Counted from the stretch's first letter, positions 9,314 through 33,236 are shown. The stretch: DNA of 34,946 bases from Gemmatimonadales bacterium (GCA_025935545.1 JAICVB010000002.1:1-34946); one strand, 5' to 3'. Numbers and translations: made by a program. The notes: generated by a model from the letters alone, not told the origin.

Positions 9314-9346
9314 GGAGGCCGAAGATGATGTCTAAGTAGCTGGATG

Positions 9347-11682: not shown

Positions 11683-11800
11683 AGCATGCGACGGGGCAGG
11701 TGGCTTCGTACCATTGCCTCCCGGGGGCGGCTATATTCGCGGTCTGGGCGCGGAGTTACGACGTCGGCAGGGGCGGCGGCAAACGCGAGGAGGGAAGTGC

Positions 11801-13444: not shown

Positions 13445-13466
13445 CGCGGCCCCACGCGGGCTCTCG

Positions 13467-14504
13467 ATGAAGACCTATGGCGTAGGCGTGATCGGGTGCG
13501 GCTACTGGGGGCCCAACCTGGTGCGGAACTTCGCGCGCAACCCGCGGACGCAGGTCCTCGCGGTGTGCGATTCGCGGCACGAGCGCGCCGCGAAAGTCGG
13601 CGCCGAGTATCGCGTGCCCGTCGTGACCGACCAGGTGCGGGAGCTGATCGCGGCGCCCGGCATCGATCTCGTCGTCGTGGCGACGCCGTCCTTCACGCAC
13701 TTCGAGCTGGCCCGCGAGGCGCTCGAGGCGGGGAGGCACGTGCTCGTCATGAAGCCGCTTACCACCACGAGCGAGCACGCGGAGGAGCTGTGCCAGCTGG
13801 CGCACCGGCAGGGGCTCCTCCTCGCCGTGGACCACACCTTCGTCTTCACCGGTGCCGTCCGCCACATGCGGTCGCTCATCGAGTCGGGCGAGGTGGGCGA
13901 CCTCTACTACTTCGATTCGGTGCGCATCAACCTGGGCCTCATCCAGACCGACGTGAACGTCGTCTGGGACCTGGCGCCGCACGACGTCTCGATCATGGAT
14001 TACCTGATCGGCCAGGAGCCGGCCAGCGTGGCGGCGCAGGCGGCAGGGCACGGCGGAAGCCCCACCGAGAACATCGCCTACCTGACCGTGCGCTACGCCG
14101 GCTCGCTGCTCGGCGCGGTGCACGTCAACTGGCTGGCGCCCGCCAAGGTGCGGCGGACGATCGTCGGTGGCTCCAAGCGCATGATGATCTACGATGACAT
14201 GGAGCCGAGCGAGAAGCTCAAGGTCTACGACAAGGGCGTGTCGATCTCGAGCGACCCGAGCGACGAGTATCAGTTCATGATCTCCTACCGGTCGGGCGAC
14301 ATGCATGCGCCCCGCCTCGACACCCGCGAGGCGCTCGCCGTGGAGGCCGACAACATCGTGGCCGCGATGGACGGGCGCGAGCCCCTGGTGTCCGACGGCC
14401 GCGCCGGCCTCCGCGTCGTGCGGATCCTGGAGGCGGCCCAGCGGTCAATCGAGCAGGGCGGCGTGCTGATCTCGCTCAACGGCGTGCCGGCGGCGGCCGG
14501 GTGA
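13467..14504 (+). CDS. Gfo/Idh/MocA oxidoreductase, WlbA/WbpB-like UDP-sugar 3-dehydrogenase
   Basis: The N-terminal Rossmann motif is GVIGCGYWGPNLVRNF. The VMKPL motif is present. The context is the classic oxidoreductase / LbH acetyltransferase / DegT aminotransferase trio. Confidence 0.8.
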   Translation: MKTYGVGVIGCGYWGPNLVRNFARNPRTQVLAVCDSRHERAAKVGAEYRVPVVTDQVRELIAAPGIDLVVVATPSFTHFELAREALEAGRHVLVMKPLTTTSEHAEELCQLAHRQGLLLAVDHTFVFTGAVRHMRSLIESGEVGDLYYFDSVRINLGLIQTDVNVVWDLAPHDVSIMDYLIGQEPASVAAQAAGHGGSPTENIAYLTVRYAGSLLGAVHVNWLAPAKVRRTIVGGSKRMMIYDDMEPSEKLKVYDKGVSISSDPSDEYQFMISYRSGDMHAPRLDTREALAVEADNIVAAMDGREPLVSDGRAGLRVVRILEAAQRSIEQGGVLISLNGVPAAAG

Positions 14505-15016
14505 CGCCGGAGCCGGGCCGGGCCGAGCGCGACGAGCTGCTCCGCCGCGTGGCTCCCGACGTGCGGCTGGGGCGTGGTGTCCGGATGTACGCCTTCGTCA
14601 ACCTGTATGGCTGCACCATCGGCGACGAGACCTCGATCGGCACCTTCGTCGAGATCCAGAAGGGCGTGGTCATCGGCGCGCGCTGCAAGATCCAGAGCCA
14701 CAGCTTCATCTGCGAGGGCGTGACGATCGAGGACGAGGTCTTCGTCGGTCACAACGTCAACTTCATCAACGACACGTACCCCCGGGCCACCACCGGAGGC
14801 GCACGGCAGACGGAGGCCGACTGGACGCTGGTCCCCACGGTCGTGCGCCGCGGCGCTTCGCTCGGCACCGGCTCCACCATCCTCGGCGGCGTGACCATCG
14901 GCGAGGACGCGATCGTCGGGGCCGGGTCGGTGGTCACGCGCGACGTGCCGCCCCGCGCGGTCGTCGCCGGCAACCCCGCACGCCTCCTCCGCACGCTCCC
15001 CGACGCGGGCGGCTGA
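14501..15016 (+). CDS. Hexapeptide-repeat (LbH) N-acetyltransferase, WlbB/WbpD-like
   Basis: IGARCKIQSHSFICEGVTIEDEVFVGHNVNFIND and GVTIGEDAIVGAGSVVTRDVPPRAVVAGNPARL resemble WbpD. The GTG start overlaps the upstream stop (GTGA). Confidence 0.8.
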   Translation: MTPEPGRAERDELLRRVAPDVRLGRGVRMYAFVNLYGCTIGDETSIGTFVEIQKGVVIGARCKIQSHSFICEGVTIEDEVFVGHNVNFINDTYPRATTGGARQTEADWTLVPTVVRRGASLGTGSTILGGVTIGEDAIVGAGSVVTRDVPPRAVVAGNPARLLRTLPDAGG

Positions 15017-15036
15017 CGGCGGCTCGCGGTCGCGTC

Positions 15037-16212
15037 ATGCACGCCGCTGCCATCGCCGCCCTCTCGGCGGGCGCACTCCTCGCCGCCTGCCTCGACCGCG
15101 GGCCGGGTGACCTCCTCGGCAATTCCGCGCCCGACCGGAGCGGCCGGCAGCCCTGGACGATCATCCTCAGCGACGACGCTGGGCGGGTCCTCATCGCGCA
15201 GACGGATTCCGCCCTCGCGCCCGGCGAGGACAGCGCGGCGGTCGGCCGCGCGACGCTCTGGCGCACGCTCGATGGGCCGGCGGAGCCTGACTCCTTCGCC
15301 CTCGGCGTGCAGGCCCATGGCCGCCGCCTCGAGTGGTCGCTCCGTCGGGCCGGTCAGACGGTCGGGTCGGGGAGCGGAGCGCTGCTGGCCTATCCGGGCG
15401 ACGAGGGCGCGCCGCGCTACGCGGGTCTCGCAGCGATCACGCTCGCCGGGGTTCCCCCGGCCATGCGCTTCGACGCCATCGGCGGCCTTCCCATGCCGGC
15501 GGACATGCCTGCGCCCGTGGCCCCGCTGCCCATCGCGGCCCGCGGCGTGGTGTCGCTCCGGGTGGACGACTGCTCGGCATGGGACTCGACGTCGCTCCGC
15601 CTGCTCGAGCGCCACCACCTCGTCGCGTCGTTCGCGGTGCCCAGCCGCCTCGTGGGAAGGCCCGGACGCTGCTCGCGCGATCTCCTCGAGCGGATCGCCG
15701 GCGCGGGCAACGCGATCGACGCCCACTCACGGTACCATGATGCGGCTCCCGCCGGCTTCGCCGATTTCTACATCGAGGCGGTCGGCGCCAGCCGCGACCT
15801 TCGCGCCATGGGCTTCGACGCGGCCGTCTTCGTACAGCCCGGCAGCTGGACCGTGGGGCCCGCGCTGTTCGACTCACCGGCCAAGCTCGCGACGCCGTAC
15901 GGCGCGCTCATTCGCCGCGTCTATCGTGCGCTGGAGGCGTACCAGACCGATGCCGCCTCGGTTCCGCTCCCCGCCGCCGGGCGCTGGCCCTACGCCGGGG
16001 AAATCCGCTACTTCGACCGCGAGCGCCTGGCGGCGTTCGTGCGTGATGCCGCGGCGCGCGGCGAATGGGTGGAGTTCCTGTGGCACTCGGGAGACCAGCC
16101 CTGGGACGCGCTCGATGGCCGCCTTGCCGTGATCGCGGCGATGCGGGACAGCGGCTACGTCGCCAACCTCACCTTCCGCGACGCGCTTCGGGCCGTACCA
16201 CCGGCTCCCTGA
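15037..16212 (+). CDS. Lipoprotein with C-terminal NodB-like (polysaccharide deacetylase-type) motifs and an unassigned ~170-aa N-terminal domain
   Basis: The signal peptide has a lipobox (LLAAC). SLRVDDC (a DD motif) is followed about 55 aa later by HSRYH (an H-S-x-x-H motif), the spacing typical of CE4 deacetylases. GC3 pattern and amino-acid composition support this frame over the overlapping ORFs. Confidence 0.55.
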   Translation: MHAAAIAALSAGALLAACLDRGPGDLLGNSAPDRSGRQPWTIILSDDAGRVLIAQTDSALAPGEDSAAVGRATLWRTLDGPAEPDSFALGVQAHGRRLEWSLRRAGQTVGSGSGALLAYPGDEGAPRYAGLAAITLAGVPPAMRFDAIGGLPMPADMPAPVAPLPIAARGVVSLRVDDCSAWDSTSLRLLERHHLVASFAVPSRLVGRPGRCSRDLLERIAGAGNAIDAHSRYHDAAPAGFADFYIEAVGASRDLRAMGFDAAVFVQPGSWTVGPALFDSPAKLATPYGALIRRVYRALEAYQTDAASVPLPAAGRWPYAGEIRYFDRERLAAFVRDAAARGEWVEFLWHSGDQPWDALDGRLAVIAAMRDSGYVANLTFRDALRAVPPAP

Positions 16213-16303: not shown

Positions 16304-17440
16304 ATGGCTCACGCCGCGCCTTCCGGCACCGCCGCTGCGATTCCGTTCCTCGACCTCGTCGCCCAGCACCGGCCGCTGGAGGAGGACCTCGTCGCGGCGT
16401 TCCGGCGTGCGGTGCAGACGGCTGGTTTCGTGGGCGGGCCGGAGGTCGCAGCATTCGAGCGGGAGTTTGCCGCCAGCGTGGGGGCCGCGGAATGCGTCGG
16501 CGTCAACAGCGGGACCGATGCGCTGCGCTTCGCGTACCAGGCGCTTGGCCTCCGGCCGGGCGACGAGGTGATCACCGTCCCCAACACCTTCATCGCCACG
16601 ACCGAGGCGATCACCCAGGCCGGGGGCACGATCCGCTTCGTGGACGTGGACGACGCCACGATGACGATGGATCCGGCGGCGCTCGCGGCGGCGGTCACGC
16701 CCCGCACGGTCGGCATCGTGCCCGTGCACCTCTACGGCCAGCCGGCGGACATGGATCCGATCCTCGGCGTGGCGCGGCAGCACGGCCTCTGGGTGGTGGA
16801 GGATGCGGCGCAGGCGCATGCCGCGCGCTATCGGGGCCATCCCGTCGGCACCCTGGGCGATCTCGCCGCCTACAGCTTCTATCCCGGGAAGAATCTGGGA
16901 GCCTGCGGGGAGGGCGGAGCCGTCGTCGCCCGCGAGGCGGGGCGGCTGGAGCCGGTGCGGCAGCTCCGCGAGCATGGGCAGTCGAAGAAGTACTATCACG
17001 AGAGCGAAGGCTTCAACGGGCGGCTGCATGCGATCCAGGCCGCGTTCCTCCGTATCAAGCTGCCGCACCTGAAGGCGTGGACCGAGGGCCGGCGGCGAGC
17101 CGCCGCGCGATACCGGGAAGCGCTCGCGGGCATCGGGGAAATCGAGCTGCCCGTCGAGGCCGCCTACGCGCGGCACGTGTACCACCTGTTCGTGATCCGC
17201 GCCGACCGCCGCGACGAGCTGCAGCAGCACCTGGGCGCGGAGCGCATCGGCACCGGGCTCCACTATCCGCTCCCGCTGCACCTCCAGCACGCCTATCGCG
17301 GCATGGGACTCGGCGAGGGAAGCTTTCCCGTCACCGAGCGCGCCGCTTCCCGGCTCCTCAGCCTGCCGATGTTTCCCGAGCTTTCCGATAGCCAGATCGA
17401 GCGCGTCGCTGACGCGATCCGCGCCTTCTACCGCGGCTGA
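16304..17440 (+). CDS. DegT/DnrJ/EryC1/StrS family PLP aminotransferase, WlbC/WbpE-like
   Basis: Motifs are IPFLDL, GGPEV..FE.EFA, VNSGTDAL, the PLP-lysine motif SFYPGKNLGACGEGGAV, and NGRLHAIQAAFL. Confidence 0.9.
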   Translation: MAHAAPSGTAAAIPFLDLVAQHRPLEEDLVAAFRRAVQTAGFVGGPEVAAFEREFAASVGAAECVGVNSGTDALRFAYQALGLRPGDEVITVPNTFIATTEAITQAGGTIRFVDVDDATMTMDPAALAAAVTPRTVGIVPVHLYGQPADMDPILGVARQHGLWVVEDAAQAHAARYRGHPVGTLGDLAAYSFYPGKNLGACGEGGAVVAREAGRLEPVRQLREHGQSKKYYHESEGFNGRLHAIQAAFLRIKLPHLKAWTEGRRRAAARYREALAGIGEIELPVEAAYARHVYHLFVIRADRRDELQQHLGAERIGTGLHYPLPLHLQHAYRGMGLGEGSFPVTERAASRLLSLPMFPELSDSQIERVADAIRAFYRG

Positions 17441-18718: not shown

Positions 18719-19813
18719 GTGAGTGAGCGCGCGGTGGCGCTCTGCTACGGGACGCGCCCGCAGATCATCAAGGCGAGCCGCATCCGGCGCGCCCTGGAAG
18801 GCCTGGCGCCCGTGCTCGCCATCGACACGGGGCAGCACTACGACTACGAGCTGAACGAGCTGCTCTACCGCCAGCTCGAGGTCGCCGACCCCGACCTGTG
18901 CCTCGAGGTGGGGTCGGGGTCGCACGCGGAGCAGACGGCGGCCATCCTGGCTCGTGCGGCCGCGATCTTCGAGGAGCGGCGGCCGCGGGCCGTGGTCGTG
19001 ATCGGCGACACCAACTCCACGCTGGGCGCGGCGCTGGCCGCCGCCAAGCTGCGCATCCCGGTGGTGCACGTGGAAGCGGGGCTGCGCGCCGCCGACGGCG
19101 GGATGGCGGAGGAGATCAATCGCCGCGCCGTCGATGCAGTGGCCGCGCTGCTCTGCACCCCATCGGCCTTGGCCACGGCGCGGCTCCAGCGGGAACGGCC
19201 CGATGCCGTCATCGTGGAGACCGGCGACGTCGCCCGCGACGTCCTGATGCGGCACGCGGGGTCGCTCCCCGATGTGCGCGGGCTGCTGCCCGCCGGGGGC
19301 CGGTACGCGTTCGCCACGTTGCACCGGGCCGAGCTGACCGACGCGCCCGGGCTCCTGGCCCGCGCGCTCGAAGCGCTGGCCGCGCTGCCCCTGCCGGTGG
19401 TGCTCGCCCTGCACCCGCGCACGCGCGCGGCGCTCGCCGCGCACCGGCTCACGCTGCCGGCGGGGCCGACGTTCAGCGCGATCCCCGCGGTCGGCTATCT
19501 CGAGAGCCTCGCGCTCGCGGCCGGCGCGCAGGCGGTGATCACCGACTCGGGCGGGCTCCAGCGCGAGGCCTACTGGCTCGGCACGCCCTGCATCACGCTC
19601 CGGACGGAGACGGAGTGGAGCGAGACCGTCGCGGCCGGCGCCAATCGCCTGGTGCCTCCGGACGCGCCCGAACGGCTCGGCATGGCGCTCAGCGCCGCGC
19701 TGGCCGCGCCCCGCGGCTGGGGCCGCGACGCCTATGGAGACGGCAGCGCGGCGGGCCGCATCGCCGCGGCCGTGGCAGAGCTGGCCGGCACGTCCGTCAC
19801 CGTGGGGACCTGA
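18719..19813 (+). CDS. wecB: UDP-N-acetylglucosamine (or UDP-diacetamido-sugar) 2-epimerase, non-hydrolysing, WecB/WlbD/WbpI-like
   Basis: Motifs are YGTRPQIIK, IGDTNSTLG, HVEAGLR and DSGGLQREA. A GGAG lies 7 nt upstream of GTG 18719. Confidence 0.88.
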   Translation: MSERAVALCYGTRPQIIKASRIRRALEGLAPVLAIDTGQHYDYELNELLYRQLEVADPDLCLEVGSGSHAEQTAAILARAAAIFEERRPRAVVVIGDTNSTLGAALAAAKLRIPVVHVEAGLRAADGGMAEEINRRAVDAVAALLCTPSALATARLQRERPDAVIVETGDVARDVLMRHAGSLPDVRGLLPAGGRYAFATLHRAELTDAPGLLARALEALAALPLPVVLALHPRTRAALAAHRLTLPAGPTFSAIPAVGYLESLALAAGAQAVITDSGGLQREAYWLGTPCITLRTETEWSETVAAGANRLVPPDAPERLGMALSAALAAPRGWGRDAYGDGSAAGRIAAAVAELAGTSVTVGT

Positions 19814-19815
19814 CC

Positions 19816-21747
19816 ATGTGCGGGATCGGCGGCGTGATCGGATCGAGCGCCGGGTACGACGCGGGCGCCGACATCGAGCGCCTCGGCGCCGCGCTCGCGC
19901 ATCGCGGCCCGGACGGCGCCGGATGCCGCTTCCTCGCGGGGAGGCGCGCCGCGCTCGGACACCGGCGGCTCAGCATCGTGGACCTGGCCGGCGGCGACCA
20001 GCCGATGAGCAACGAGGACGGCTCGGTCTGGCTCGTCTACAACGGCGAGATCTACAACCACCTCGCGCTTCGCGCCGAGCTCGAGCGGGCAGGCCATCGC
20101 TTCCGGTCGCGGGCCGACACGGAAGTCGTGGTGCATGGGTGGGAGGAATGGGGCCCCGGCGTGCTCGAGCGGCTCAACGGGATCTACGCCTTCGCGCTGT
20201 TCGACGGCCGGGGAGGATCCGGGCGGGTCTGGCTCGCGCGCGATCCGGTCGGCGCCAAGCCGCTCTACCTCGGGCAGCGGGACGGTCTCACCTGGTTCGC
20301 GAGCGAGCTCAGCGCGGCGCGTTCCGCCGGGCTCGTCGACGAGACGATCCGCCCCGAGGCCCTCGGCGAGTATCTCGTCTACCGCTTCGTGCCGGCCCCG
20401 GCCACGGTCTTCCGGCATGCCTGGAAGGTGCCGCCCGGCCACTACTGCTCCATCCCCCTCGACGCGCCGGCAGGCCCGCCGGCTTTCCGCTCGTTCACGC
20501 CACGCTTCGCGCCGGCGACGCTGCCGGCAAGCCCGGAGGAGTGGGAGGAGGCGATCCGGACGGGCCTCGGGAACGCGGTCCGCCGCCAGCTCATGTCCGA
20601 CGTGCCGGTGGGCTCGCTGCTCTCGGGCGGCGTGGACTCGACGGCCGTGACCGGCCTCATGCGCGACGCCCTGCCGGCGGCGCCGCAGGCCTTCGCCATC
20701 GGCTTCAGCGATCCGGGCGCGCCCGACGAGCTCGGCGCGGCCCGCGCCGCCGCGCAGGCGCTGGGCGTCCCGCTCGAGGAGGTCGCCGTCTCGGAGCGCG
20801 ACTACCTGGCGCGCTGGCCGGCGCAGATCGCCTCACTGGGGGAGCCGGTGGCGAATTCGGGGGTGCTGCTGCTCGATCTCCTGTGCGAGCGCGTCGCGCT
20901 CACCCACAAGGTGGTGCTGACGGGGCAGGGCGCCGATGAGCCGCTCGGCGGCTACCCCCGGCACGCGGCGGAGCGGTGGGCGGGCTCGCTGCGCCTGATG
21001 TCGCCGCTGCTCGCGCACCTGCCCGAGCGGTTCGCGTCCAGCGATCGGGTGGCGCGCGCCCGGCGGCTCGCGCGCGCATCCGGGGAGGCGGAGCGTTTCG
21101 CGGAGACACTCGCGGTGTTCGGGCCCGCCGAGGCCGCCAGGCTCAGCCGCGCTCCGCTCGATCCCTCCGCGCTGGTGGATCCGGTGCGCCGCTGGCTGCC
21201 GGAAGCACGGGACGGGGATTCCCTCAACCGGCTCCTCGTCACCGATGCGCGGCTGTCCCTGGCGGACGACCTGCTGACGATCGCCGATCGCACGTCGATG
21301 CGATCATCGGTCGAGCTCCGCGTGCCCTTCCTCGATCTCGAGTTCCTCGCGCTGCTCGAGCGGATGCCGAGCCGGTACAAGGTCTCCGGGCTGGGCGGGC
21401 GGAAATGGCTCTACCGGCGTGCGGTGACGCCGCTGATTCCCGCCTCGCTCCGCCCGCGCCTCCTCGGCGCCCAGAGCCGGCTGGGCCCGAAGCTGGGCTT
21501 CTCAACGCCGCTCGACCGATGGTTCGCGTCGTGGGTCGAGCGCGACGCCCCGGCCTACCTCACCGGGCGCGACGCGCGCATCACCGATCACCTCGACGCC
21601 GGCGAGGTCAACCGTCTCCTCCGGTCCGTTCGCGAGGAGGGCAGGCCCCGGCCGCGGCAGCTCCTCTCGCTCTACGTGCTGGAAACGTGGCTCAGGTCGC
21701 TCACCGGCGCCCCCGTAGCGGCCGCGGCCCTTCAGGCGGCCAGCTGA
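19816..21747 (+). CDS. AsnB-type glutamine-hydrolysing amidotransferase, paralogue 1
   Basis: The N-terminal nucleophile is MCGIGG. Glutaminase motifs HRRLSIVDL, YNGEIYN and ADTEVV are present. The PP-loop is SLLSGGVDST. The start lies 2 nt after the wecB stop. Confidence 0.88.
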   Translation: MCGIGGVIGSSAGYDAGADIERLGAALAHRGPDGAGCRFLAGRRAALGHRRLSIVDLAGGDQPMSNEDGSVWLVYNGEIYNHLALRAELERAGHRFRSRADTEVVVHGWEEWGPGVLERLNGIYAFALFDGRGGSGRVWLARDPVGAKPLYLGQRDGLTWFASELSAARSAGLVDETIRPEALGEYLVYRFVPAPATVFRHAWKVPPGHYCSIPLDAPAGPPAFRSFTPRFAPATLPASPEEWEEAIRTGLGNAVRRQLMSDVPVGSLLSGGVDSTAVTGLMRDALPAAPQAFAIGFSDPGAPDELGAARAAAQALGVPLEEVAVSERDYLARWPAQIASLGEPVANSGVLLLDLLCERVALTHKVVLTGQGADEPLGGYPRHAAERWAGSLRLMSPLLAHLPERFASSDRVARARRLARASGEAERFAETLAVFGPAEAARLSRAPLDPSALVDPVRRWLPEARDGDSLNRLLVTDARLSLADDLLTIADRTSMRSSVELRVPFLDLEFLALLERMPSRYKVSGLGGRKWLYRRAVTPLIPASLRPRLLGAQSRLGPKLGFSTPLDRWFASWVERDAPAYLTGRDARITDHLDAGEVNRLLRSVREEGRPRPRQLLSLYVLETWLRSLTGAPVAAAALQAAS

Positions 21748-23657
21748 TGTGTGGCTTCGGCGGCGTCATCGACCTCCGGCGCGGGCCGCCCGACTCCCTC
21801 GGTGACGTCGCCGCGGCGCTGAGTCACCGCGGGCCTGACGCGCGTCACGAATGGCGGGAGGGCCCCTGCGCGCTGGTGCACTGCCGGCTCCGGGTGCTTG
21901 ATCTCTCCGAACGGGCGGATCAGCCCATGTCGCGCCCGGGGGGGCGCGTGGTCGTGGCCTACAACGGCGAGATCTACAACTTCCGGGAGCTGCGGACGGA
22001 GCTCGAGGCGGCGGGGTGTGCGTTCGTCACGCGGTCGGACACCGAGGTGCTTCTGGCCGGCTACGAGCTGTGGGGGCCCGACGTGTTCGCGCGGCTCCGC
22101 GGCATGTTCGCCGCCGCCTTCTGGCATCCCGACCAGCGGCGCCTGGTCCTCGCCCGTGATCCGCTGGGCAAGAAGCCCCTCGTCTACGCCCTCTCGCCCG
22201 GCCGCATCGTCTTCGCCTCGACCGTGGGCGCGCTCCTGCCATTGCTCGATCGCGTCCCCGCCGTCAGCCGGCCGGCGCTCGACTGCTATCTCGGCCACAC
22301 CGTCGTGCCCTTCGAGCACGCGATGCTCGAAGGCGTCGAGAAGCTTCCGCCGGGCGGCTTTCTCGAGTGGGGGGCCGGGACGGTCCGCACGGGGCGGTTC
22401 TGGCAGGTCCCTTCCGCCCCGGCCTCGCCCTCGATGCCGGCGGCCGAAGCGGCGGTCGAGCTCGAACGCCTGCTGCGACAGGCCGTGCGCCGGCGCCTCG
22501 AGAGCGACGTGCCGCTCGGCCTCTTCCTGAGTGCCGGCTTCGATTCGAGCCTGGTGGCGGCGCTGGCGGCACAGGAGCACACGGGCCGGCTCGTGGCCGT
22601 GACCGCCGGGACGGCCGGTTCGGGATACGATGAGCGCTCGGTGGCCGGGCTCGTGGCGGAGCGATACGGCCTGGAGCACCGCCTGGTGGAGGTCCCGGCC
22701 GTCTCCGCGGCTCCGCTTCCCATGCTGCTGGCCGAGCTGGGGGAGCCCTTCGGCGACTCATCGATCCTCCCCTCGTACGAGGTGGCTCGCGCGGCGCGCC
22801 GGGAGATCACGGTGGCGCTCACCGGCGACGGCGGGGACGAGGCGTTCTTCGGCTATGCCACCTTCCGCGGCGTACGACTGGGGGAGCGGTACCGGCGCTG
22901 GATGCCCGCGCCGATGCGGCGTCTCCTTCGCGCCGCGACGGGCGGCGCGACGCGCGAGGGCTGGTTCCGGCGCGCCGGCGCGCTCTTCGAGTACGGGGCC
23001 GACCCAATCAGCGAGAGCTACCGCAACCGGATGGGCTTCGGGCCGCGCGACCGCGCCGCGCTCCTGGGCGGCGCCGTTCCGGGCCACCGGGCGGAGCACA
23101 TCTACACCGAGCGGCTCGAACGCTTCCGCTCGCTTCCGGATGCCGACGCGCTGCGCCGCACCTTCTTCGAGACCTACCTGCCGAACGACTACCTGCCGAA
23201 GGTGGACACGGCCACGATGGCGGCCTCGCTCGAGGCGCGCTCGCCATTCCTCGACGTGGACGTGGTGGAGTTCGCGCTGAGCCTGCCAGAGGCGACCGCC
23301 TTTCCCGGCGGCCGCCTCAAGGCGCTGCTGCGCCCGCTCGTGGCCCGGCTGCTCCCCGCCGAGGTGCTTCGGCGGCCCAAGACCGGCTTCGGGGTGCCCG
23401 TGGGCCGCTGGATGCGGGGCCCGCTCGCGGGCGCGCTCGAGGAGTTCGTCTTCCGGCGCGACACCGCGATGGCGGGGCTGATCGATCCGGGCGCCGCCCG
23501 GCGCATCCACGCCCAGCACCTGGCGGGCGCCGACCACGGCACGCGTCTCTGGTCGCTCCTCTGCCTCGGCATCTGGGCGGCCGTGGTGCTGGAACGCCGC
23601 TGGCCCGCCGGCGATCCGCTGCCGGTCGGCGGCCCCGGGTCGGTGCGGGCCGCATGA
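21747..23657 (+). CDS. AsnB-type glutamine-hydrolysing amidotransferase, paralogue 2
   Basis: It has MCGFGG, YNGEIYN and SDTEVL, and a deviating PP-loop LFLSAGFDSS. The ATG shares one base with the stop of paralogue 1 (TGATG at 21745-21749). Confidence 0.85.
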   Translation: MCGFGGVIDLRRGPPDSLGDVAAALSHRGPDARHEWREGPCALVHCRLRVLDLSERADQPMSRPGGRVVVAYNGEIYNFRELRTELEAAGCAFVTRSDTEVLLAGYELWGPDVFARLRGMFAAAFWHPDQRRLVLARDPLGKKPLVYALSPGRIVFASTVGALLPLLDRVPAVSRPALDCYLGHTVVPFEHAMLEGVEKLPPGGFLEWGAGTVRTGRFWQVPSAPASPSMPAAEAAVELERLLRQAVRRRLESDVPLGLFLSAGFDSSLVAALAAQEHTGRLVAVTAGTAGSGYDERSVAGLVAERYGLEHRLVEVPAVSAAPLPMLLAELGEPFGDSSILPSYEVARAARREITVALTGDGGDEAFFGYATFRGVRLGERYRRWMPAPMRRLLRAATGGATREGWFRRAGALFEYGADPISESYRNRMGFGPRDRAALLGGAVPGHRAEHIYTERLERFRSLPDADALRRTFFETYLPNDYLPKVDTATMAASLEARSPFLDVDVVEFALSLPEATAFPGGRLKALLRPLVARLLPAEVLRRPKTGFGVPVGRWMRGPLAGALEEFVFRRDTAMAGLIDPGAARRIHAQHLAGADHGTRLWSLLCLGIWAAVVLERRWPAGDPLPVGGPGSVRAA

Positions 23658-24646
23658 GCGGCGCGCATGAGCCGCTCCGCATCCTCGCCGTCACCAACAT
23701 GTATCCCTCGGCCACGCGGCCGTACTTCGGCATCTTCGTGCGCCGCCAGGTGGAGGCGATGCGTGCCGCGGGGGTCGACATGGCCCTCGAGGTGATCGCC
23801 GCAGACCGCGGCGAGGGCGACTACTTCCTGGGCCGCTCGCGCGTGCGGCGCGCGGTGCGCGAGCTCCGGCCCGCCCTGATCCACTGTCACTACGGCTACA
23901 CTCCGCTCGCCGCGGCCTTCACCGGCGCGCCCTACCTGGTCACCCTGTGCGGGGACGACATCAACGGACAGGCCGACGGCCACGGCGGGAGGACCTTCAA
24001 GAGCACGCTCGGCATCGGGGTGACCCAGGTCTTCGCGGGGCTCGCGCGGCGGGTGATCGTGAAGAGCGAGGCGATGCGGCGGCGGCTCTGGCCGGCGGCG
24101 CGCGCCAACAGCGACGTGCTTCCCAACGGGGTCGATACGCGGCTCTTTTCGCCCGGCTCCCGCGCGGCGGCCCGGGCGCGGCTGGGCCTGCCGGCCGATG
24201 GCCTCGTCGTCGCCTTCGTCAACAGTGCGGGGCAGGCGAGCAAGCGCCTCGATGTCGCCGAGGCGGTCCGCGACGAGCTCGCGCGACGCGGCCGGGCGCC
24301 GCACCTGCTCGTTGCCCGCTCCGTTCCCGCCGACGACATGCCGTGGCACTACCGCGCGGCGGACTGCCTGCTCGTCACGTCCGACAGCGAGGGCGCGCCC
24401 AACGTGGCCAAGGAGGCGCTCGCGTGCGGTGTACCGGTGGTGAGCGTGCGCGTCGGCGACGTGCCCGAGGTGATCGACCGCGCCGCCATGGGGGCCGTCG
24501 TGCCGCGTGATCCCCGGCTGCTGGCCGATGCGGTCGCCGCGCTCCCGGCCGCGCCCGATCTGCGCCCCTCCCTCCTGCCCGAGCGCTACACGTCCGAGGC
24601 CATGGTGCGCGGGCTCATGGCCATCTACCGCGCGTGCCTCGCGTGA
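23654..24646 (+). CDS. Glycosyltransferase family 4 (short GT-B)
   Basis: The N-terminus is LRILAVTNMYP and the E-x7-E motif is SEGAPNVAKEALACGVPVV. There is an ATGA overlap with the upstream gene. Confidence 0.8.
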   Translation: MSGAHEPLRILAVTNMYPSATRPYFGIFVRRQVEAMRAAGVDMALEVIAADRGEGDYFLGRSRVRRAVRELRPALIHCHYGYTPLAAAFTGAPYLVTLCGDDINGQADGHGGRTFKSTLGIGVTQVFAGLARRVIVKSEAMRRRLWPAARANSDVLPNGVDTRLFSPGSRAAARARLGLPADGLVVAFVNSAGQASKRLDVAEAVRDELARRGRAPHLLVARSVPADDMPWHYRAADCLLVTSDSEGAPNVAKEALACGVPVVSVRVGDVPEVIDRAAMGAVVPRDPRLLADAVAALPAAPDLRPSLLPERYTSEAMVRGLMAIYRACLA

Positions 24647-26310
24647 CCGCCGTCCCGATCGAGGGGACGGTGGTTGGGAGCCCGGACGCGGACCCGATCG
24701 GCACGGGCTGGCGGCGGCTCGCGCTGCTGCTTTCGATACCCGCCGTGCTCATCGGCGTCGTCGCCTATCCCAACGTCCAGCTCGCCACGATGCCCCTGGG
24801 TGCGGCGCTGCCGGTGCTGCTCGCCGCGGCGGCGCTGATCGTGCTGTCCGGCCGCACCCGGCTCCTCGTCCTCCTGCCGCTCATCTCCGCGTACCTGCCC
24901 TCGGCGGAGATCGGGTTCGTCGCCTATCTCGCGGCGCTCGGCTATTTCGTGCTGGTGTACGGGGGCGCCCGCATCGTGCGGCCGCTCGACGCCCCCGACT
25001 GGGCGCTGCTCGCCGTGCTGCTCTGGACTGTCACCAGCTGGCTGGCCAACCTCGGGGACCAGACCGACCTGTGGTCGCTCCCCGTGTTCACGCTCACCTT
25101 CCTCGCGCCCTGGCTTCTCCTCTTCGTGGCGCGGGCCGCGCCGTGGACCACGGGCGAGATCCGGACCATCGTCGTGACCGTCGCCGGGCTGGCGGCGTCG
25201 CAGCTGGCCCCGGCCCTCCTCAAGCCGATCGCCGCCGGCATGCCCGAGGCGTACAGCGTTCCACTCATCCCGCTCCAGGTGACGCGCGTCGCGCTCATCC
25301 GGAACTTCCTCGCGGCGGGCGAGGCGTCCGACCTGACGTCGGGGAGCACGCCGAGCGCGCATCACCTCGGAATCGCGCTGATGCTGTTCGCGGTCTTCCT
25401 GGTGGCGCTCAACGCGGGCGCCCGGCGGCGCACCCATGCCGGCCTCCTGGCGGTCGTCGTGTTCGTCTTCCTGATGACGGATTCGAAGCACGTGATCCTC
25501 TCCGCCGTGCCGGCGGGACTGATCTTCGGTGCCGCCGTCATCTGGCCGGCGCTGGCGCGGCGGTGGCGCCGGCTGCTCGGCTGGGCGGCGGTCCTCGTGG
25601 CGGTGACGGCGGGACCGGTGCTCGCCGTACGCACCGCGCGCATCGTGATCGACGGGCTCTGGCGCCCCTACATCGTGCTGGCCAAGATCAACCCGAAGGT
25701 GCAGCTCGTGGTGCGCACCAGCCAGCTGCTCGGACGCGGCGACCTCGACACCTGGATCGGCTACGGTCCCGGGAGCTACGCGACGCGCGCCGCGACCATC
25801 CGCGCCACCGACGTGCTGTTCAAGGAAGCGCAGCGCCTGCCCGACTTCATCCCGCCGTGGACGTCGCCGGCATATCGGTCGGTGGCCTACGATCTGTACA
25901 CGGCCGATATCGTCGCGACCGCCCAGTTCCGGAGCGGGGCCCTCACCAACCCGTTCAGCAGCGTGGTCGGCATCGTCGCGGAATACGGCATCGGCGGTTC
26001 GATCGTGGTGGCGATCTTCCTCTGGCTGCTGGCGCGCGAGGGGTTCCGCCGCTGGCGCGACGGCGACGCCGAGCTCCGCGTCCGCGCCGCGGGGGCGACG
26101 CTCGGGTTCGCGGTGCCGTTCCTGGTCGTGCTGGGGATCTTCGACAGCTACTTCGAGCAGCCCGACATCACGGCGGCGATCGTGACGCTCGCGCTGGTGA
26201 CGCTGGCGGGCGGGAGGCCGCTTACGGGGAAGAGCGGCGGCGGAGGGAGGAGCGGAGCTGCTGGTAGCCCGCGGGATCCAGTTCCCGCAGCGACCAGCCC
26301 GCAGCCCTGA
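24643..26310 (+). CDS. Polytopic membrane protein of the Wzy_C / O-antigen ligase-polymerase family
   Basis: It has at least 10 predicted TM helices. TSGSTPSAHHLGIALMLF and WIGYGPGSY resemble the NPN.LG and G.G.G.F signatures of Wzy_C proteins. GTG 24643 overlaps the upstream stop; an alternative GTG lies at 24634. The low-complexity C-tail overlaps the convergent gene by 89 nt. Confidence 0.6.
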   Translation: MTAVPIEGTVVGSPDADPIGTGWRRLALLLSIPAVLIGVVAYPNVQLATMPLGAALPVLLAAAALIVLSGRTRLLVLLPLISAYLPSAEIGFVAYLAALGYFVLVYGGARIVRPLDAPDWALLAVLLWTVTSWLANLGDQTDLWSLPVFTLTFLAPWLLLFVARAAPWTTGEIRTIVVTVAGLAASQLAPALLKPIAAGMPEAYSVPLIPLQVTRVALIRNFLAAGEASDLTSGSTPSAHHLGIALMLFAVFLVALNAGARRRTHAGLLAVVVFVFLMTDSKHVILSAVPAGLIFGAAVIWPALARRWRRLLGWAAVLVAVTAGPVLAVRTARIVIDGLWRPYIVLAKINPKVQLVVRTSQLLGRGDLDTWIGYGPGSYATRAATIRATDVLFKEAQRLPDFIPPWTSPAYRSVAYDLYTADIVATAQFRSGALTNPFSSVVGIVAEYGIGGSIVVAIFLWLLAREGFRRWRDGDAELRVRAAGATLGFAVPFLVVLGIFDSYFEQPDITAAIVTLALVTLAGGRPLTGKSGGGGRSGAAGSPRDPVPAATSPQP

Positions 26311-27292
26311 ACGCGGCCCAGGCCACGGCCAGCGCGGCCGCGAGCACGGCGCCGGTGATCGTCATCCGGGTGCGGCGCGGGAAGTCGCGGTACACCGGCG
26401 CCACCGGTGCCTGCACCAGAGTGAAGACCGGCGTGTCGCGCACCTCGTCGATCTGCGCGTCCTGCAGCTCCCGCGACAGGCGGCCGTACTCGTCGGTGAG
26501 CAGCTCGATGCGGCGGTTCAGCTGCTCGCGCTGGAAGGCGAGGCGGGGGATATCGTTCACGCCGGCCCGATTCGCTTCGAGGAATGCGCGCAAGGCACCC
26601 TCGGCCTGCGCCAGCTGCCCGCGCGAGGTGGCGACCGCGCGCTCGGCGAACCGCCGCCGCTCGGAAGCGGCGGAGCGGCGCGTCTCGAAGTTGAACTGCT
26701 CGAGGTGCTCGTAGAGGCGGCGCGCGACGTCCGCGGCGAGCTGCGCATCGGGCAGCGTGACGTTGAGGGTGATGGTGCCGGTGCGGTCGTTCGTGGTGGT
26801 GCCCACGGCCCTGGCCGACAGGAAATCCACGGCGTCGCTGATCCGGTGGGCGCTGTCGGCGCCGGTGATGTGCAGGATGTCGATGAGCGGCCGCCGTTGC
26901 GCGCGGTTTGCCGGATCCGCGAAGGAGTCGAGGGCCACGCGGGTGAGCACGTCGCGTCCCACCACGACGTCGGCGTAGAACTGGAGGGACCGCGTGCCGC
27001 CGAGGCTCCCCGCGCCCAACTGGCCCGCGAGGGCGGCGAGTCCGCCGGCGGCGCTCGGGTTCAGCGTCCGCTCCTCGAGGGCGAACTTGGCGGTGGCGCG
27101 ATAGCGCGGGTGCGCGAGCAGCGCCCAGGTGGCCGCCACGGCGCCGCCCAGGAGGCCACACAGCGCGATGAGGCGCCAGCGCGCGGCCACCGCCGCGGCG
27201 ACGCGGAGCAGGGAGGTCTGTCGCGGCGGCTCGGCCGGCTCGGCGATGGGGCCCGCGGCTGGGTTCATGGAGCGCGAAACGTCGCGCGGCAC
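26222..27292 (-). CDS. Polysaccharide co-polymerase (Wzz/PCP, chain-length determinant) without kinase domain
   Basis: An N-terminal TM (WRLIALCGLLGGAVAATWALL) and a C-terminal TM (ITGAVLAAALAVAWAAF) flank a ~270-aa region with coiled-coil character (ERRRFAERAVATSRGQLAQAEGALRAFLEAN). There is no Walker A. The start is GTG 27292 or ATG 27268. Confidence 0.7.
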   Translation of the reverse strand: MPRDVSRSMNPAAGPIAEPAEPPRQTSLLRVAAAVAARWRLIALCGLLGGAVAATWALLAHPRYRATAKFALEERTLNPSAAGGLAALAGQLGAGSLGGTRSLQFYADVVVGRDVLTRVALDSFADPANRAQRRPLIDILHITGADSAHRISDAVDFLSARAVGTTTNDRTGTITLNVTLPDAQLAADVARRLYEHLEQFNFETRRSAASERRRFAERAVATSRGQLAQAEGALRAFLEANRAGVNDIPRLAFQREQLNRRIELLTDEYGRLSRELQDAQIDEVRDTPVFTLVQAPVAPVYRDFPRRTRMTITGAVLAAALAVAWAAFRAAGWSLRELDPAGYQQLRSSLRRRSSP

Positions 27293-28937: not shown

Positions 28938-30395
28938 GTGCGGCGGCTCTCCTTCCTCCTCAAGGATTCCCTGGTCTACGGCGTTGCCGGCGCGGTCAAC
29001 CGCGTCGTCAAGATCCTGCTCGTCCCGGTGGTGGCGCGGGCCTTCCCCGTGGAGGTCTTCGGGGCGTACGACGCGGCGGGCGTGTACGTGTACGTCCTCG
29101 CGGTCCTGGCCGTGCTGGGACTCAACTCCTCCGTGATCATCATCGCGACCCGCGACGTCTCCCGCGCGGATGAGGGCCGCCTGGGCGAGACGGCGGGTGT
29201 CGGGCTCCGGATGGTGGCGGGGGCGGCCCTGGTGGTGACGGCGATCATCCTGATGGCTCCGTCACTGGCGAGCCGCATCCTGCTCGGCACCCCGCAGTAC
29301 GGCCGCGAGATCGCCTGGGCGGTCGCGAGCGCCCCCTTCTCCGCGGTGCTCATCTACGCGCTCAGCGTGCTGCAGTGGGCCTTCCGGCGGACGGCCTATG
29401 TGGTCATCGCCCTCGGCTCGGCGGTCCTCACGATCGGCCTGTCGTGGTTCGTGGCGTTCCATACCGGCTGGGGGCTCGTCGGCCTCTTCGCCGCCAACCT
29501 GGCGGGGCAGGCGGTCGGCGCCCTCGCGGCGCTCGCGGCGGCGCGTGACCTCCTCCGGGCACCGTGGAGCGGTGGCGTCGCGCGCCAGATGCTCGCGGTC
29601 GGCCTGCCCTTCGCGGCCATCGCCGTCGCGAGCAACCTGATCCCCTCGCTCGACCGCCTCTTCCTGGTACAGGCACACAGCCTCGCCGACGCGGGCGTCT
29701 ACGGCATGGGACAGAAGATCGCGGCGCTCGCCGGCCTCATCCTCACCGGGTTCCAGGCGGCGTGGCAGCCGTTCGCCTTTTCCCAGCGGGCGGCGGAGGA
29801 CAAGCCGGAGATGTTCGGCCGGGTGTTCCTCCTCATCTGCGGCGTGGCGGGGTTCCTCACCCTCGCGCTCGTCTGCGCCGCGCCGCTCATCGCACGGTAC
29901 GCCGCTACGCCGGCCTATGCGGGCGCGGCTATATTCGTGGGTCCGCTCGCGCTCTCGACCGGCCTCGGCGCCGTCTTCTTCGTGGTCGCGATGGGCTCGC
30001 TGTTCGAGGGCAAGTCGCTGCACAACCTGGTCGCGTACGGCGTCGGGGTCGGCACGACGGTGGTGCTCAACCTGATCTTCCTCGCGCAGGGCGCTCCGCC
30101 GATCGCGATCGCGTGGGCCAACTGCCTGGGGCAGGCCGCGGCGGTGGCCTGCATGACGGTGCTCTCGCAGCGGGTGCATCCGATCCCCTATCCCCTCATC
30201 CGTGGAGTGCTGGTGATGCTCGCCGCCGCCGCCGTTGCCGTGCTCGCGGGCCGCGCCGTACCGGGCTGGTCGCTCGGGGCCGTGGCCGCCGCGCAGCTGG
30301 CGCTCGCGGCCGCGTTCGCGGCGTGGCTCCTCTTCGGGGTGCTCGAGCCGGCCGAGCGGGCCCGCCTGCTCGCGCGGGGGAGCGCCGTTTCGTGA
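28938..30395 (+). CDS. wzx: Wzx-type oligosaccharide flippase (MOP superfamily, polysaccharide biosynthesis protein)
   Basis: It has about 12-14 TM helices. The N-terminus LLKDSLVYGVAGAVNRVVKILLVPVVARAF..EVFGAY and the mid-protein segment GLPFA...L...DRLFL are typical of Polysacc_synt proteins. Confidence 0.7.
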   Translation: MRRLSFLLKDSLVYGVAGAVNRVVKILLVPVVARAFPVEVFGAYDAAGVYVYVLAVLAVLGLNSSVIIIATRDVSRADEGRLGETAGVGLRMVAGAALVVTAIILMAPSLASRILLGTPQYGREIAWAVASAPFSAVLIYALSVLQWAFRRTAYVVIALGSAVLTIGLSWFVAFHTGWGLVGLFAANLAGQAVGALAALAAARDLLRAPWSGGVARQMLAVGLPFAAIAVASNLIPSLDRLFLVQAHSLADAGVYGMGQKIAALAGLILTGFQAAWQPFAFSQRAAEDKPEMFGRVFLLICGVAGFLTLALVCAAPLIARYAATPAYAGAAIFVGPLALSTGLGAVFFVVAMGSLFEGKSLHNLVAYGVGVGTTVVLNLIFLAQGAPPIAIAWANCLGQAAAVACMTVLSQRVHPIPYPLIRGVLVMLAAAAVAVLAGRAVPGWSLGAVAAAQLALAAAFAAWLLFGVLEPAERARLLARGSAVS

Positions 30396-30970
30396 CGCCG
30401 TCTCCGGGCCCCGCCGACGATCTCCTCGCGGCGCTCCGCGCGCTCCACGCCACCCGCTCGGCCGAGGTACGCGAGCGCTGGCAGCGGTCACTCCCGCTGG
30501 CCGACTACGTCGTGGATCGGTGGGAGCGGGCCCGGGGTCTCGGCTTCGGGCCGGGCAGCAGCATCTACGACCAGTCCCTTGTCCTCGGGGACGTCGACGT
30601 CGGCGAGGGCACGTGGATCGGGCCGAATACCGTGCTCGACGGCTCCGGTGGCCTGCGCATCGGGGCCACCTGCAGCATCTCGGCGGGCGTGCAGATCTAC
30701 ACGCACGACTCGGTGCGGTGGGCGCTCTCGGGGGGCCGGGCACCCTATGACCGCGCGCCGGTCGTGATCGGCGACCACTGCTACCTGGGACCCTGCACGG
30801 TGGTCACGAGCGGCGTGACCATCGGGCGGCACTGCCTCATCGGCGCCCACTCGCTCGTGAACCGCGACCTGCCGGACTACTCCATTGCGTGGGGCGTGCC
30901 CTGCCGGGTGGTGGGCCGCGTGGAGGTCTCCGGCGCGGACGTTTCCTTCATCTATTCGGGCACCGCATGA
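30392..30970 (+). CDS. Hexapeptide-repeat (LbH) sugar acetyltransferase
   Basis: Motifs are VGEGTWIGPNTVLDGSGGLRIGATCSISAGVQIYTHD and VVIGDHCYLGPCTVVTSGVTIGRHCLIGAHSLVNRDLP. There is a GTGA overlap with the wzx stop. Confidence 0.8.
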   Translation: MTPSPGPADDLLAALRALHATRSAEVRERWQRSLPLADYVVDRWERARGLGFGPGSSIYDQSLVLGDVDVGEGTWIGPNTVLDGSGGLRIGATCSISAGVQIYTHDSVRWALSGGRAPYDRAPVVIGDHCYLGPCTVVTSGVTIGRHCLIGAHSLVNRDLPDYSIAWGVPCRVVGRVEVSGADVSFIYSGTA

Positions 30971-33220: not shown

Positions 33221-33236
33221 CCGACTGGGGAGAGAC

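Follow-up and report, generated by a model that had tools for sequence, protein, structure and literature searches.

Three divergent WbpS/WbqG-like amidotransferase genes in a conserved Wzx/Wzy polysaccharide locus of a Gemmatimonadales genome

WbqG of Escherichia coli O121 and WbpS of Pseudomonas aeruginosa O6 are AsnB-like enzymes required for GalNAcAN, and wbqG was reported to be necessary for this sugar (PMC7468200). In Porphyromonas gingivalis, the AsnB-like gene PGN_1234 (wbpS) of the Wbp/Vim pathway lies beside wbpE and wzx, and its deletion abolishes the uronamide, the amide being lost from a 2,3-diamino-glucuronic acid derivative (PMC7468200); this pathway has a single amidotransferase and makes a linking sugar for T9SS cargo instead of a polymer of repeat units. 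The statement in an earlier note on this DNA that biochemical proof for such enzymes is scarce holds for in vitro work, but not for genetics, as genetic proof exists for WbpS/WbqG and PGN_1234 (PMC7468200). The wbm locus of Bordetella bronchiseptica carries three glutamine-dependent amidotransferase genes, wbmC, wbmI and wbmZ, for which a role in making the C-6 amide of L-GalNAc3NAcAN was proposed, and its polymer consists of 2,3-diacetamido-2,3-dideoxy-hexuronic acid, partly present as uronamide (PMC2615507).

We analysed a window of 34,946 nucleotides from a Gemmatimonadales MAG, which holds a conserved Wzx/Wzy polysaccharide locus adjoining hflX and three AsnB-like genes, here named AsnB1, AsnB2 and AsnB3 (Table 1).

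Table 1. Coordinates, strand and assignment of the genes discussed, counted from the first nucleotide of the window.
Gene	Coordinates	Strand	Features
Wza-like outer-membrane polysaccharide exporter	6788-9313	-	Poly_export and repeated SLBB domains; upstream edge of locus
Initiating polyprenyl-phosphate glycosylphosphotransferase	11714-13444	+	Bac_transf; TIGR03025 333 bits, above cut-off
GFO/IDH/MocA sugar 3-dehydrogenase, WbpB/GnnA role	13467-14504	+	Pfam/NCBIfam and PDB matches
Hexapeptide sugar 3-N-acetyltransferase, WbpD/WlbB role	14501-15016	+	PDB matches including WxcM-like 4MZU and WlbB 3MQG
DegT-family sugar 3-aminotransferase, WbpE role	16304-17440	+	PDB matches including QdtB, 2OGA and WbpE (250 bits)
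WecB/WbpI-like nucleotide-sugar 2-epimerase	18719-19813	+	Pfam Epimerase_2, E = 1.5e-79
AsnB1	19816-21747	+	643 aa; class-II (Ntn) glutamine amidotransferase fused to PP-loop adenylating domain
AsnB2	21747-23657	+	636-aa paralogue
GT4 glycosyltransferase	23654-24646	+	330 aa
Membrane protein, probable Wzy-type polymerase	24643-26310	+	At least nine predicted spans
Wzz-type chain-length determinant	26222-27292	-	Domain search
Wzx-type flippase	28938-30395	+	Polysacc_synt; ten hydrophobic segments
SDR epimerase/dehydratase	33237-34241	+	Directly upstream of AsnB3; pairing repeated in related locus L093
AsnB3	34241-34946	+	5' part (235 codons) of 621-aa third paralogue; cut by window end

The intergenic distances around AsnB1 and AsnB2 are tight: a 2-nt gap separates the WecB-like gene from AsnB1, the AsnB1 stop codon and the AsnB2 ATG share one base (...AGC TGA TG..., hence TGATG), and 4-nt overlaps join AsnB2 to the GT4 gene and the GT4 gene to the membrane protein gene. 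These junctions, as well as the coordinates, MCG starts, glutaminase motifs and PP-loops given in the earlier note, agreed with the DNA and the translations. In 19.5 kb there is a single, weak terminator-like site, where chance alone would give 3.5. Nine Gemmatimonadales loci contain the same cassette, and the tight spacing and this recurrence bear out the earlier placement of the genes in a glycan operon; the evidence supports AsnB1-3 as part of the main Wzx/Wzy-dependent surface-polysaccharide locus and not of amino-acid metabolism. The WecB-like protein scored 209.5 bits with TIGR00236 (cut-off 210.15). A gene with a weak match to NodB-type deacetylases sits between the acetyltransferase and aminotransferase genes and recalls VimE of P. 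gingivalis, and in related loci the GT4 gene is consistently paired with AsnB2 on the downstream side. The membrane protein had been called Wzy-family: its predicted spans and its position in the slot of Wzy_C proteins in related loci are consistent with this, but it has no Pfam or NCBIfam family match. AsnB3 belongs to a module of SDR, PseC-like DegT aminotransferase, acetyltransferase and 350-aa methyltransferase genes, followed by a gene for an L-2-hydroxyglutarate-oxidase-like flavoenzyme.

In translation, AsnB1 starts with MCGIGG and contains HRRLSIVD, YNGEIYN, DTEV and LLSGGVDST, and AsnB2 starts with MCGFGG and contains HCRLRVLD, YNGEIYN, DTEV and LSAGFDSS. Pfam matches of AsnB1 and AsnB2 to Asn_synthase (E = 2e-63 and 9e-79) and GATase_6/7 (E = 1e-38 to 1e-42) place these domain assignments far above chance level. 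AsnB3, already recognised as a divergent third copy, starts about 10 kb from the pair and is complete on the source contig (L007:11005-12870), the 235 common residues being identical to the part in the window. Pairwise identity among AsnB1-3 is only about 33%. All three retain Cys2, Arg49, Asn74-Gly75-Glu76 and Asp98 for the glutaminase, as well as the PP-loop S-x-G-x-D-S, Glu352 and the ATP-site residues Asp351, Lys429 and Lys449 (E. coli numbering, from alignments).

By glutaminase residues, PP-loop/ATP site and score, AsnB1-3 fall in the AsnB superfamily (Pfam GATase_6/7 plus Asn_synthase; TIGR01536). Among the three models that the earlier note had suggested, only TIGR01536, "asparagine synthase (glutamine-hydrolyzing)", was passed, with 372, 369 and 455 bits for AsnB1, AsnB2 and AsnB3 (curated cut-off 267 bits). 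That all three lie above this broad cut-off, and that Gemmatimonadota very widely carry orthologues of AsnB1, would fit one copy being the housekeeping asparagine synthetase, or an amidotransferase for peptidoglycan (mDAP), merely located in the locus, a reading that we consider very improbable. TIGR01536 is not discriminating because WbqG passes it as well (460 bits), and with NF006949 (asparagine synthetase B) all three copies, at 236, 220 and 289 bits, stay below the curated cut-off of 499 bits. Wherever the context of an AsnB1 orthologue was inspected, it was this glycan locus, with GT4 genes on the flanks. The residues specific to asparagine synthesis point the same way: E. coli AsnB and human ASNS share with AsnB1-3 the glutaminase residues, the PP-loop and the two ATP-site lysines, yet identity is 26-31%, the C-terminal domain of AsnB1-3 is longer by about 100 residues, and AsnB1-3 lack both the catalytic Glu and the aspartate loop TTxR. 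In the alignment, EPxxxS-type sequences replace the TTxR loop, which in E. coli AsnB is part of the aspartate site. The position of Glu348 (human Glu-364) is occupied by Q in AsnB1, by D in AsnB2, within a GDGGDE motif, and by A in AsnB3, and the human ASNS variants E364Q and E364A are inactive (PMC6748925). Given the NF006949 scores, the replaced Glu348 and the missing TTxR loop, we rejected AsnB1-3 as bona fide asparagine synthetases.

With the remaining two models, the scores stay below the curated cut-offs: 367, 420 and 465 bits with TIGR03108 (XrtA/PEP-CTERM system amidotransferase; cut-off 817 bits) and 313, 316 and 417 bits with TIGR03104 (N-acetylglutaminylglutamine amidotransferase; cut-off 570 bits). 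TIGR03108, itself labelled only "hypothetical equivalog", is the top or near-top NCBIfam match for AsnB1-3 as well as for WbqG, whose NCBIfam profile pattern is that of the three copies, but the scanned window proteins gave no Pfam match to exosortase or PEP-CTERM components.

Over the full length, AsnB1-3 are closer to WbqG (AsnB2 295, AsnB3 283 and AsnB1 231 bits, AsnB1 being the least WbqG-like) than to housekeeping AsnB (114-163 bits), while E. coli AsnB itself reaches 139 bits with WbqG. Together with the NF006949 scores, this upholds the earlier classification as WbpS-type rather than housekeeping AsnB, and within the asparagine-synthetase family, sequence places AsnB1-3 on the long branch of WbpS/WbqG-like members. 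The two-domain architecture and the length of WbqG and WbpS (630 aa) correspond to those of the three copies, WbqG and AsnB2 have in common the Asp at the Glu348 position and an EPF(G/A)DSS loop, and wbqG lies beside GT4 genes in a Wzx/Wzy locus, as the window copies do. The differences are also clear: identity to WbqG is only 29-32%, each window copy has its own orthologue family, and the O121 cluster has one amidotransferase gene, not three, and encodes its own UDP-GlcNAc 6-dehydrogenase (tviB-like) and 4-epimerase, whereas the window has no 6-dehydrogenase. The likeness to PGN_1234 is one of gene context.

AsnB1-3 each head a large orthologue family, in which the catalytic positions do not vary across the 115-121 orthologues compared for each; the same holds for a 26-sequence AsnB2 alignment. 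AsnB1 founds an orthologue family of Gemmatimonadota: over 120 orthologues share at least 61% identity with it, and its catalytic residues are invariant in 121 sequences. The AsnB3 family is very widespread, with identity still above 60% between phyla. The residue at the Glu348 position is family-specific (Q in 121/121 for AsnB1, D for AsnB2, A in 102/121 for AsnB3), and the acceptor-loop sequences differ among the copies. The deviating PP-loop of AsnB2, SAGFDSS, is a trait of the clade and not a sign of decay: of 115 orthologues, 101 share its Ala, and the remaining loop positions are invariant. A confident AlphaFold model (pLDDT 91, pTM 0.92) predicts that AsnB2 adopts the AsnB fold, with TsnB9 (7YLZ) and E. 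coli AsnB (1CT9) as the best structural matches (TM-score 0.79 normalised to 1CT9). As its ATP-binding residues are present and conserved in orthologues, AsnB2 is not the pseudoenzyme that had been considered. AsnB1-3 have a complete set of catalytic residues and are anciently diverged, and as old, distinct lineages they are not recent redundant duplicates.

The tandem AsnB1-AsnB2 pair is repeated in two related loci, L105, with a 1-nt overlap there too, and L106. Of 80 related neighbourhoods, 10 contain at least two AsnB-like genes, and two among these 10 contain three; multiple genes also occur in L103 and L104. The earlier note had regarded a three-amidotransferase glycan module as undescribed; this does not stand, as wbmC, wbmI and wbmZ of Bordetella (PMC2615507) and the multi-copy loci provide precedents, and the arrangement, though real, is rather commonplace. 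The likeness to Bordetella is one of gene content. The wbm polymer is exported by an ABC transporter, in contrast to the Wzx/Wzy system here. A Sphingomonas locus struck by transposon mutants holds the same cassette of amidotransferase, aminotransferase, acetyltransferase, MviM dehydrogenase and GT4 genes, with an additional nucleotide-sugar dehydrogenase (PMC11340318). Relatives of AsnB3 occur in loci with WbmS-like, formyltransferase and WbqC genes.

With domains, catalytic residues, operon context and WbqG similarity all observed directly, we propose by analogy, at a probability of roughly 55%, that AsnB1-3 amidate uronic-acid carboxylates for the surface polysaccharide in an ATP- and glutamine-dependent manner, each copy probably acting on a different residue or precursor. 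As in the AsnB family, the C-terminal PP-loop domain would use ATP to adenylate a carboxylate on the sugar precursor, the N-terminal domain would hydrolyse glutamine at the Cys made N-terminal by removal of Met, and the released ammonia would attack the acyl-adenylate to give a primary amide. The acceptor would most probably be the C-6 carboxylate of hexuronic acids, in the case of AsnB1 and AsnB2 likely 2,3-diacetamido-2,3-dideoxy-hexuronic acids supplied through the adjacent 3-dehydrogenase, aminotransferase, N-acetyltransferase and 2-epimerase genes; amidation may take place at the nucleotide-sugar or the lipid-linked stage, and the resulting uronamides would remove negative charge from the polymer. 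We know of no solved structure and no in vitro assay of a WbpS-type enzyme, and acceptor prediction from sequence is weak for this reason.

The paralogues could instead overlap functionally, amidating the same uronic-acid residue and jointly setting its degree of amidation. Bordetella wbm has three candidates for one amide, with a role in the degree of amidation left open (PMC2615507), and some related Gemmatimonadales loci have AsnB1 alone (L100, L101) or AsnB2 alone (L093, L094) in the same slot. Yet the low mutual identity, the strictly conserved family-specific residue at the Glu348 position and the distinct acceptor loop of each copy speak against such overlap, and the AsnB1-AsnB2 tandem persists at 64% identity, its 1-nt overlap unchanged, which argues that two functions are maintained; we regard joint action on one residue as quite unlikely.

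The nature of the acceptor is affected by the pathway genes. No UDP-sugar 6-dehydrogenase was found in the window, the source contig or the nine related Gemmatimonadales loci, and one lies within 10 kb in only 3 of 80 AsnB-like neighbourhoods across phyla, so a uronic-acid acceptor is unproven, and the C6 dehydrogenase creating the carboxylate would have to be encoded elsewhere in the genome. In Bordetella pertussis, this gene lies outside the glycan cluster as well. The GFO 3-dehydrogenase has its best PDB matches in 3C1A and 7BVJ, the latter being the UDP-GlcNAc-specific GnnA; its best NCBIfam match, below cut-off, is the archaeal UDP-GlcNAc 3-dehydrogenase, and no WlbA/WbpB-named PDB chain matched at E <= 1e-10, so that the pathway may start on a neutral sugar. 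The missing 6-dehydrogenase, the lack of a WlbA/WbpB-named match, the resemblance of the AsnB3 module to an amino-deoxy sugar pathway followed by the flavoenzyme, and the tentative label of TIGR03108 would suit acceptors with carboxylates other than uronic acids, namely a dicarboxylic N-acyl substituent, a pyruvyl or lactyl group, an amino-acid decoration on a sugar or a lipid-linked intermediate; the adenylation and ammonia-transfer chemistry would be the same, with a different, undescribed substrate class. We think such acceptors unlikely, since the only genetically characterised relatives in the branch, WbqG, WbpS and PGN_1234, make uronamides, and homologous polymers may contain uronic acids, to judge from the C5-epim_C (glucuronyl-C5-epimerase) genes of L092 and L106 and the heparinase II/III gene of L100.

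Amidation of uronic acids hence remains our preferred reading. On the missing C6 dehydrogenase and WlbA/WbpB-type match, AsnB1-3 may nevertheless amidate a non-uronic carboxylate, such as an acidic N-acyl or ketal decoration. As another option, the coupled AsnB1 and AsnB2 may form a heteromer. We hold this pair of proposals to be rather improbable, but if either were true, a defined chemistry would become available for the first time for some members of the uncharacterised and very large TIGR03108-like family.

Translations, the DNA itself and Pfam domains bore out everything that the earlier note had read from this pair of AsnB-type amidotransferase genes: the motifs, the one-nucleotide junction, the gap and overlaps and the third copy. 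AsnB1 and AsnB2 are uninterrupted, AsnB3 extends past the window end, and all three proteins start with MCG. The glutaminase motifs read HRRLSIVD in AsnB1 and HCRLRVLD in AsnB2, both proteins have YNGEIYN and DTEV, and the PP-loops are LLSGGVDST and LSAGFDSS, respectively; GATase_6/7 and Asn_synthase domains were found in both full copies (E = 1e-38 to 1e-79). At the AsnB1/AsnB2 junction, AGC-TGA-TG, one base is common to stop and start, while a 2-nt gap separates the epimerase gene from AsnB1 and each of the two genes after AsnB2 overlaps its predecessor by 4 nt.

The genes belong to a polysaccharide locus that spans from a Wza-like exporter to beyond the window end (see table), in DNA of 73% G+C whose homologues bear Gemmatimonadales or Gemmatimonadota names. 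Exact-protein look-ups assign the window to a 108-kb contig from a Gemmatimonadales MAG (GCA_035248145.1). A promoter/terminator scan found a single, weak terminator-like site in 19.5 kb, vs 3.5 expected by chance.

Gene content of the polysaccharide locus and its flank, in locus order (window coordinates, except on L007, the longer source contig)
Feature	Position	Strand	Remark
Long ORF	2966-5428	+	C-terminal LEA_2 domain
Ada-type gene	3506-4672	-	Ada_Zn_binding, HTH_AraC and O6-methylguanine methyltransferase domains
hflX (HflX GTPase)	5561-6763		adjoins locus edge at 6788
Wza-like exporter	6788-9313	-	locus edge
Two GT4 glycosyltransferases			
Initiating phosphoglycosyl transferase			
GFO-family 3-dehydrogenase			
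Hexapeptide N-acetyltransferase			
Lipoprotein, 391 aa	15037-16212	+	signal ...LLAAC; weak NodB polysaccharide-deacetylase match (E = 8e-4, below cut-off)
DegT 3-aminotransferase			
Divergent GT4			
WecB-like 2-epimerase			
AsnB1	19816-21747	+	643 aa
AsnB2	21747-23657	+	636 aa
GT4			
Multi-span Wzy-like protein	24643-26310	+	
Wzz	26222-27292	-	
Second multi-span membrane protein, 528 aa	27318-28904	+	at least 6 N-terminal spans, soluble C-terminal part
Wzx			
Second acetyltransferase			
PseC-like aminotransferase			
Methyltransferase, 350 aa			
SDR			
AsnB3	34241 to past window end	+	621 aa at full length
FAD oxidase	L007:12872-13999		beyond window, 1 nt after AsnB3 stop

Because hflX adjoins the locus in at least three Gemmatimonadales genomes (the window and the related loci L094 and L102), we regard it as a syntenic core locus and not a mobile island. 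A GC dip at 33-34 kb had raised horizontal transfer of the AsnB3 module, which was ruled out by a GC3 of 0.91-0.96 in all genes; the lower overall G+C there reflects amino-acid composition. Several further features were observed. The LEA_2 ORF overlaps the opposite-strand Ada-type gene, and the true LEA_2 gene is probably much shorter. The NodB-like lipoprotein recalls VimE of the Wbp/Vim pathway, and its slot between the 3-N-acetyltransferase and aminotransferase genes varies, being occupied in related loci by Ig/Big_1-domain proteins, a GT4 or unknown genes. At their 3' ends, the convergent Wzy-like and Wzz genes overlap by about 89 nt; the 528-aa protein gave no Pfam or NCBIfam match, and a gene of its type (415-545 aa in L007-L010 and L093) is kept beside the divergent Wzz gene.

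Judging from profile scores and active-site residues, none of the three copies is an asparagine synthetase. All pass the broad model TIGR01536; on NF006949, the model for AsnB proper, they score 220-289 bits vs a cut-off of 499. Where E. coli AsnB has its TTxR loop, which we take to be part of the aspartate site, AsnB1 has GEPVANSG and AsnB2 has GEPFGDSS. In addition, the Glu of the S-G-E-G-S-D-E motif (Glu348 in E. coli numbering) is Gln throughout the AsnB1 family (121/121), Asp in AsnB2 and Ala in 102 of 121 AsnB3 family members. In human ASNS, the corresponding Glu364 helps to hold the aspartyl moiety, and both E364Q and E364A are inactive (PMC6748925). A housekeeping role is thus given very little credence.

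The copies are almost certainly active enzymes. More than 100 orthologues were collected for each, and across 115-121 sequences per family the following are conserved (E. coli numbering): the nucleophile Cys, Arg49, Asn74-Gly75-Glu76, Asp98, Lys449 and the PP-loop Ser, Gly, Asp and Ser, all essentially invariant. Asp351-Glu352 is invariant in the AsnB1 and AsnB3 families, and G360-E365 (GDGGDE) in a 26-sequence alignment of the AsnB2 family. The Ala of the deviating SAG loop occurs in 101 of 115 AsnB2 orthologues, more distant relatives in the 26-sequence alignment having SGG, and the loop is a clade trait under selection instead of decay. The AsnB2 AlphaFold model (pLDDT 91, pTM 0.92) superposes on TsnB9 (7YLZ), E. 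coli AsnB (1CT9), human ASNS and beta-lactam synthetase; this confident model and the catalytic residues conserved in orthologues ruled out that copy 2 is a pseudoenzyme. Recent tandem duplication was likewise dismissed, since the two copies are 33% identical and fall into separate orthologue families. Pairwise identities among the three proteins are 32-33%, and 26-31% to E. coli AsnB; the comparison indicates old lineages. The paralogues may overlap in function; with a separate Glu348-position signature (Q, D or A) and a different acceptor loop in each family, we consider such overlap quite improbable. What the analysis usefully leaves is a set of three defined orthologue families, each recognisable by its active-site signature.

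Direct sequence comparison was made with WbqG, whose gene in the E. coli O121 RM8352 O-antigen cluster (L099:16094-17986) is annotated 'asnB'; WbpS, PGN_1234 and WbmC/I/Z were set beside the copies by published description. Over its full length, WbqG aligned with AsnB2 (295 bits), AsnB3 (283) and AsnB1 (231), with only 139 bits for E. coli AsnB. It resembles AsnB2 in two respects, an Asp in place of Glu348 and a CEPFADSS loop, and its NCBIfam pattern is that of the window copies: TIGR03108 on top but below cut-off, TIGR01536 passed and NF006949 failed. According to PMC7468200, which cites King et al. 2010, formation of the GalNAcAN uronamide depends on wbqG, and the same role is proposed for its homologue WbpS in P. 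aeruginosa O6. Furthermore, the AsnB-like gene PGN_1234 of P. gingivalis adjoins wbpE and wzx, the same gene association as in the window, and deleting it leaves a 2,3-diamino-glucuronic acid derivative without its amide (PMC7468200).

We propose that the AsnB copies would amidate uronic-acid carboxylates in a WbpS/WbqG-like, residue-specific manner in the main Gemmatimonadales surface polysaccharide, a reading that we put slightly above even odds (roughly 0.55). There is good support for a 2,3-diacetamido sugar as the predicted pathway product, because in the PDB the aminotransferase matches sugar 3-aminotransferases, among them WbpE, and the acetyltransferase matches sugar 3-N-acetyltransferases, among them WlbB. 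The GFO enzyme matched 3C1A and 7BVJ best in the PDB, the latter presumably the UDP-GlcNAc-specific GnnA, with no WlbA/WbpB-named chain at E <= 1e-10; its best NCBIfam match was the archaeal UDP-GlcNAc 3-dehydrogenase (150 bits vs a cut-off of 450). Oxidation of this sugar to a uronic acid we only infer. With E. coli TviB and Ugd as tblastn queries, no UDP-sugar 6-dehydrogenase was found in the window, L007 or nine related loci, and among the matches listed one lay within 10 kb in only 3 of 80 background loci. A non-uronic carboxylate as acceptor would fit such loci. In favour of uronic acids are glucuronyl C5-epimerase-like genes in L092 and L106 and a heparinase II/III-like gene in L100; in B. 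pertussis, moreover, the WbpA-type dehydrogenase is, as we understand it, encoded outside the wlb cluster. On balance, the non-uronic acceptor seems unlikely. The FAD oxidase matched L-2-hydroxyglutarate oxidase best in NCBIfam (242 bits vs a cut-off of 299). In WbpB/WlbA-type 3-dehydrogenases, 2-oxoglutarate is reduced to 2-hydroxyglutarate to restore NAD+, and the oxidase could recycle this by-product for the sugar pathway.

Nine related Gemmatimonadales loci, often beside hflX, share a cassette in the order Bac_transf, GFO, hexapeptide transferase, variable gene, DegT, WecB (not always), divergent GT4, one or two AsnB and a GT4 of about 330 aa. With assignment by bit score, AsnB1 and AsnB2 are in tandem in the window, L105 (again a 1-nt overlap; 64% identity) and L106, have one gene between them in L092 and L102, and occur singly as AsnB1 in L100 and L101 and as AsnB2 in L094 and L093, the last with AsnB3 further on. 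AsnB3 relatives of 60-63% identity occur in several phyla; the loci in which they lie (L103, L104) also contain a second AsnB-like gene, along with formyltransferases, WbqC, an ABC transporter and a WbmS-like protein. One sub-module of the window (30392-34241) is found again in the distant locus L103 (743-4880): an AsnB-like gene together with a PseC-like DegT and a methyltransferase of some 350 aa, an SDR being close by. It has the look of a cassette that can be transferred and that serves a single modified amino sugar.

The close loci were found by exact-protein look-ups; the background was 80 AsnB2-like neighbourhoods from many phyla without them (31-42% relatives among the matches listed), obtained with the very general patterns NGEIYN and GDGGDExFxG, back-translated from the AsnB2 alignment. 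Within 10 kb, ten of these 80, among the matches listed, carried two or more AsnB-like genes, and two of the ten had three: L049 (Acidobacteriota; almost in tandem, 8718-16013) and L081 (Nitrospira; within 20 kb). Such arrays are therefore not confined to Gemmatimonadota. A three-gene case, wbmC, wbmI and wbmZ of the Bordetella bronchiseptica wbm locus, is already published: these genes are candidates for making the L-GalNAc3NAcAN C-6 amide, in a polymer built solely from a 2,3-diacetamido uronic acid (PMC2615507). In Sphingomonas, transposon mutants were hit in a cell-associated polysaccharide cluster with the cassette seen here, which comprises an amidotransferase, an aminotransferase, a WxcM acetyltransferase, an MviM dehydrogenase and a GT4 (PMC11340318). 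Given these precedents, the suggestion in the earlier note that a three-amidotransferase glycan module was undescribed does not stand; otherwise, the locus is one more example of an already known type of system. Literature searches on Gemmatimonadota glycans, and on AsnB-like proteins with polysaccharide, returned nothing specific.

The three families could help to divide, by specificity, the huge pool of genes in glycan loci that are annotated 'asparagine synthase', and beside their signatures the locus raises the question of the carboxylate's origin. Gemmatimonadota are an abundant soil phylum, barely studied, and we know of no envelope chemistry for them. In pathogens, uronamide formation changes antibody epitopes and probably phage or cation binding. 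It removes negative charge from surface glycans, and in Gemmatimonadota the amidotransferase genes sit in the conserved main polysaccharide locus.
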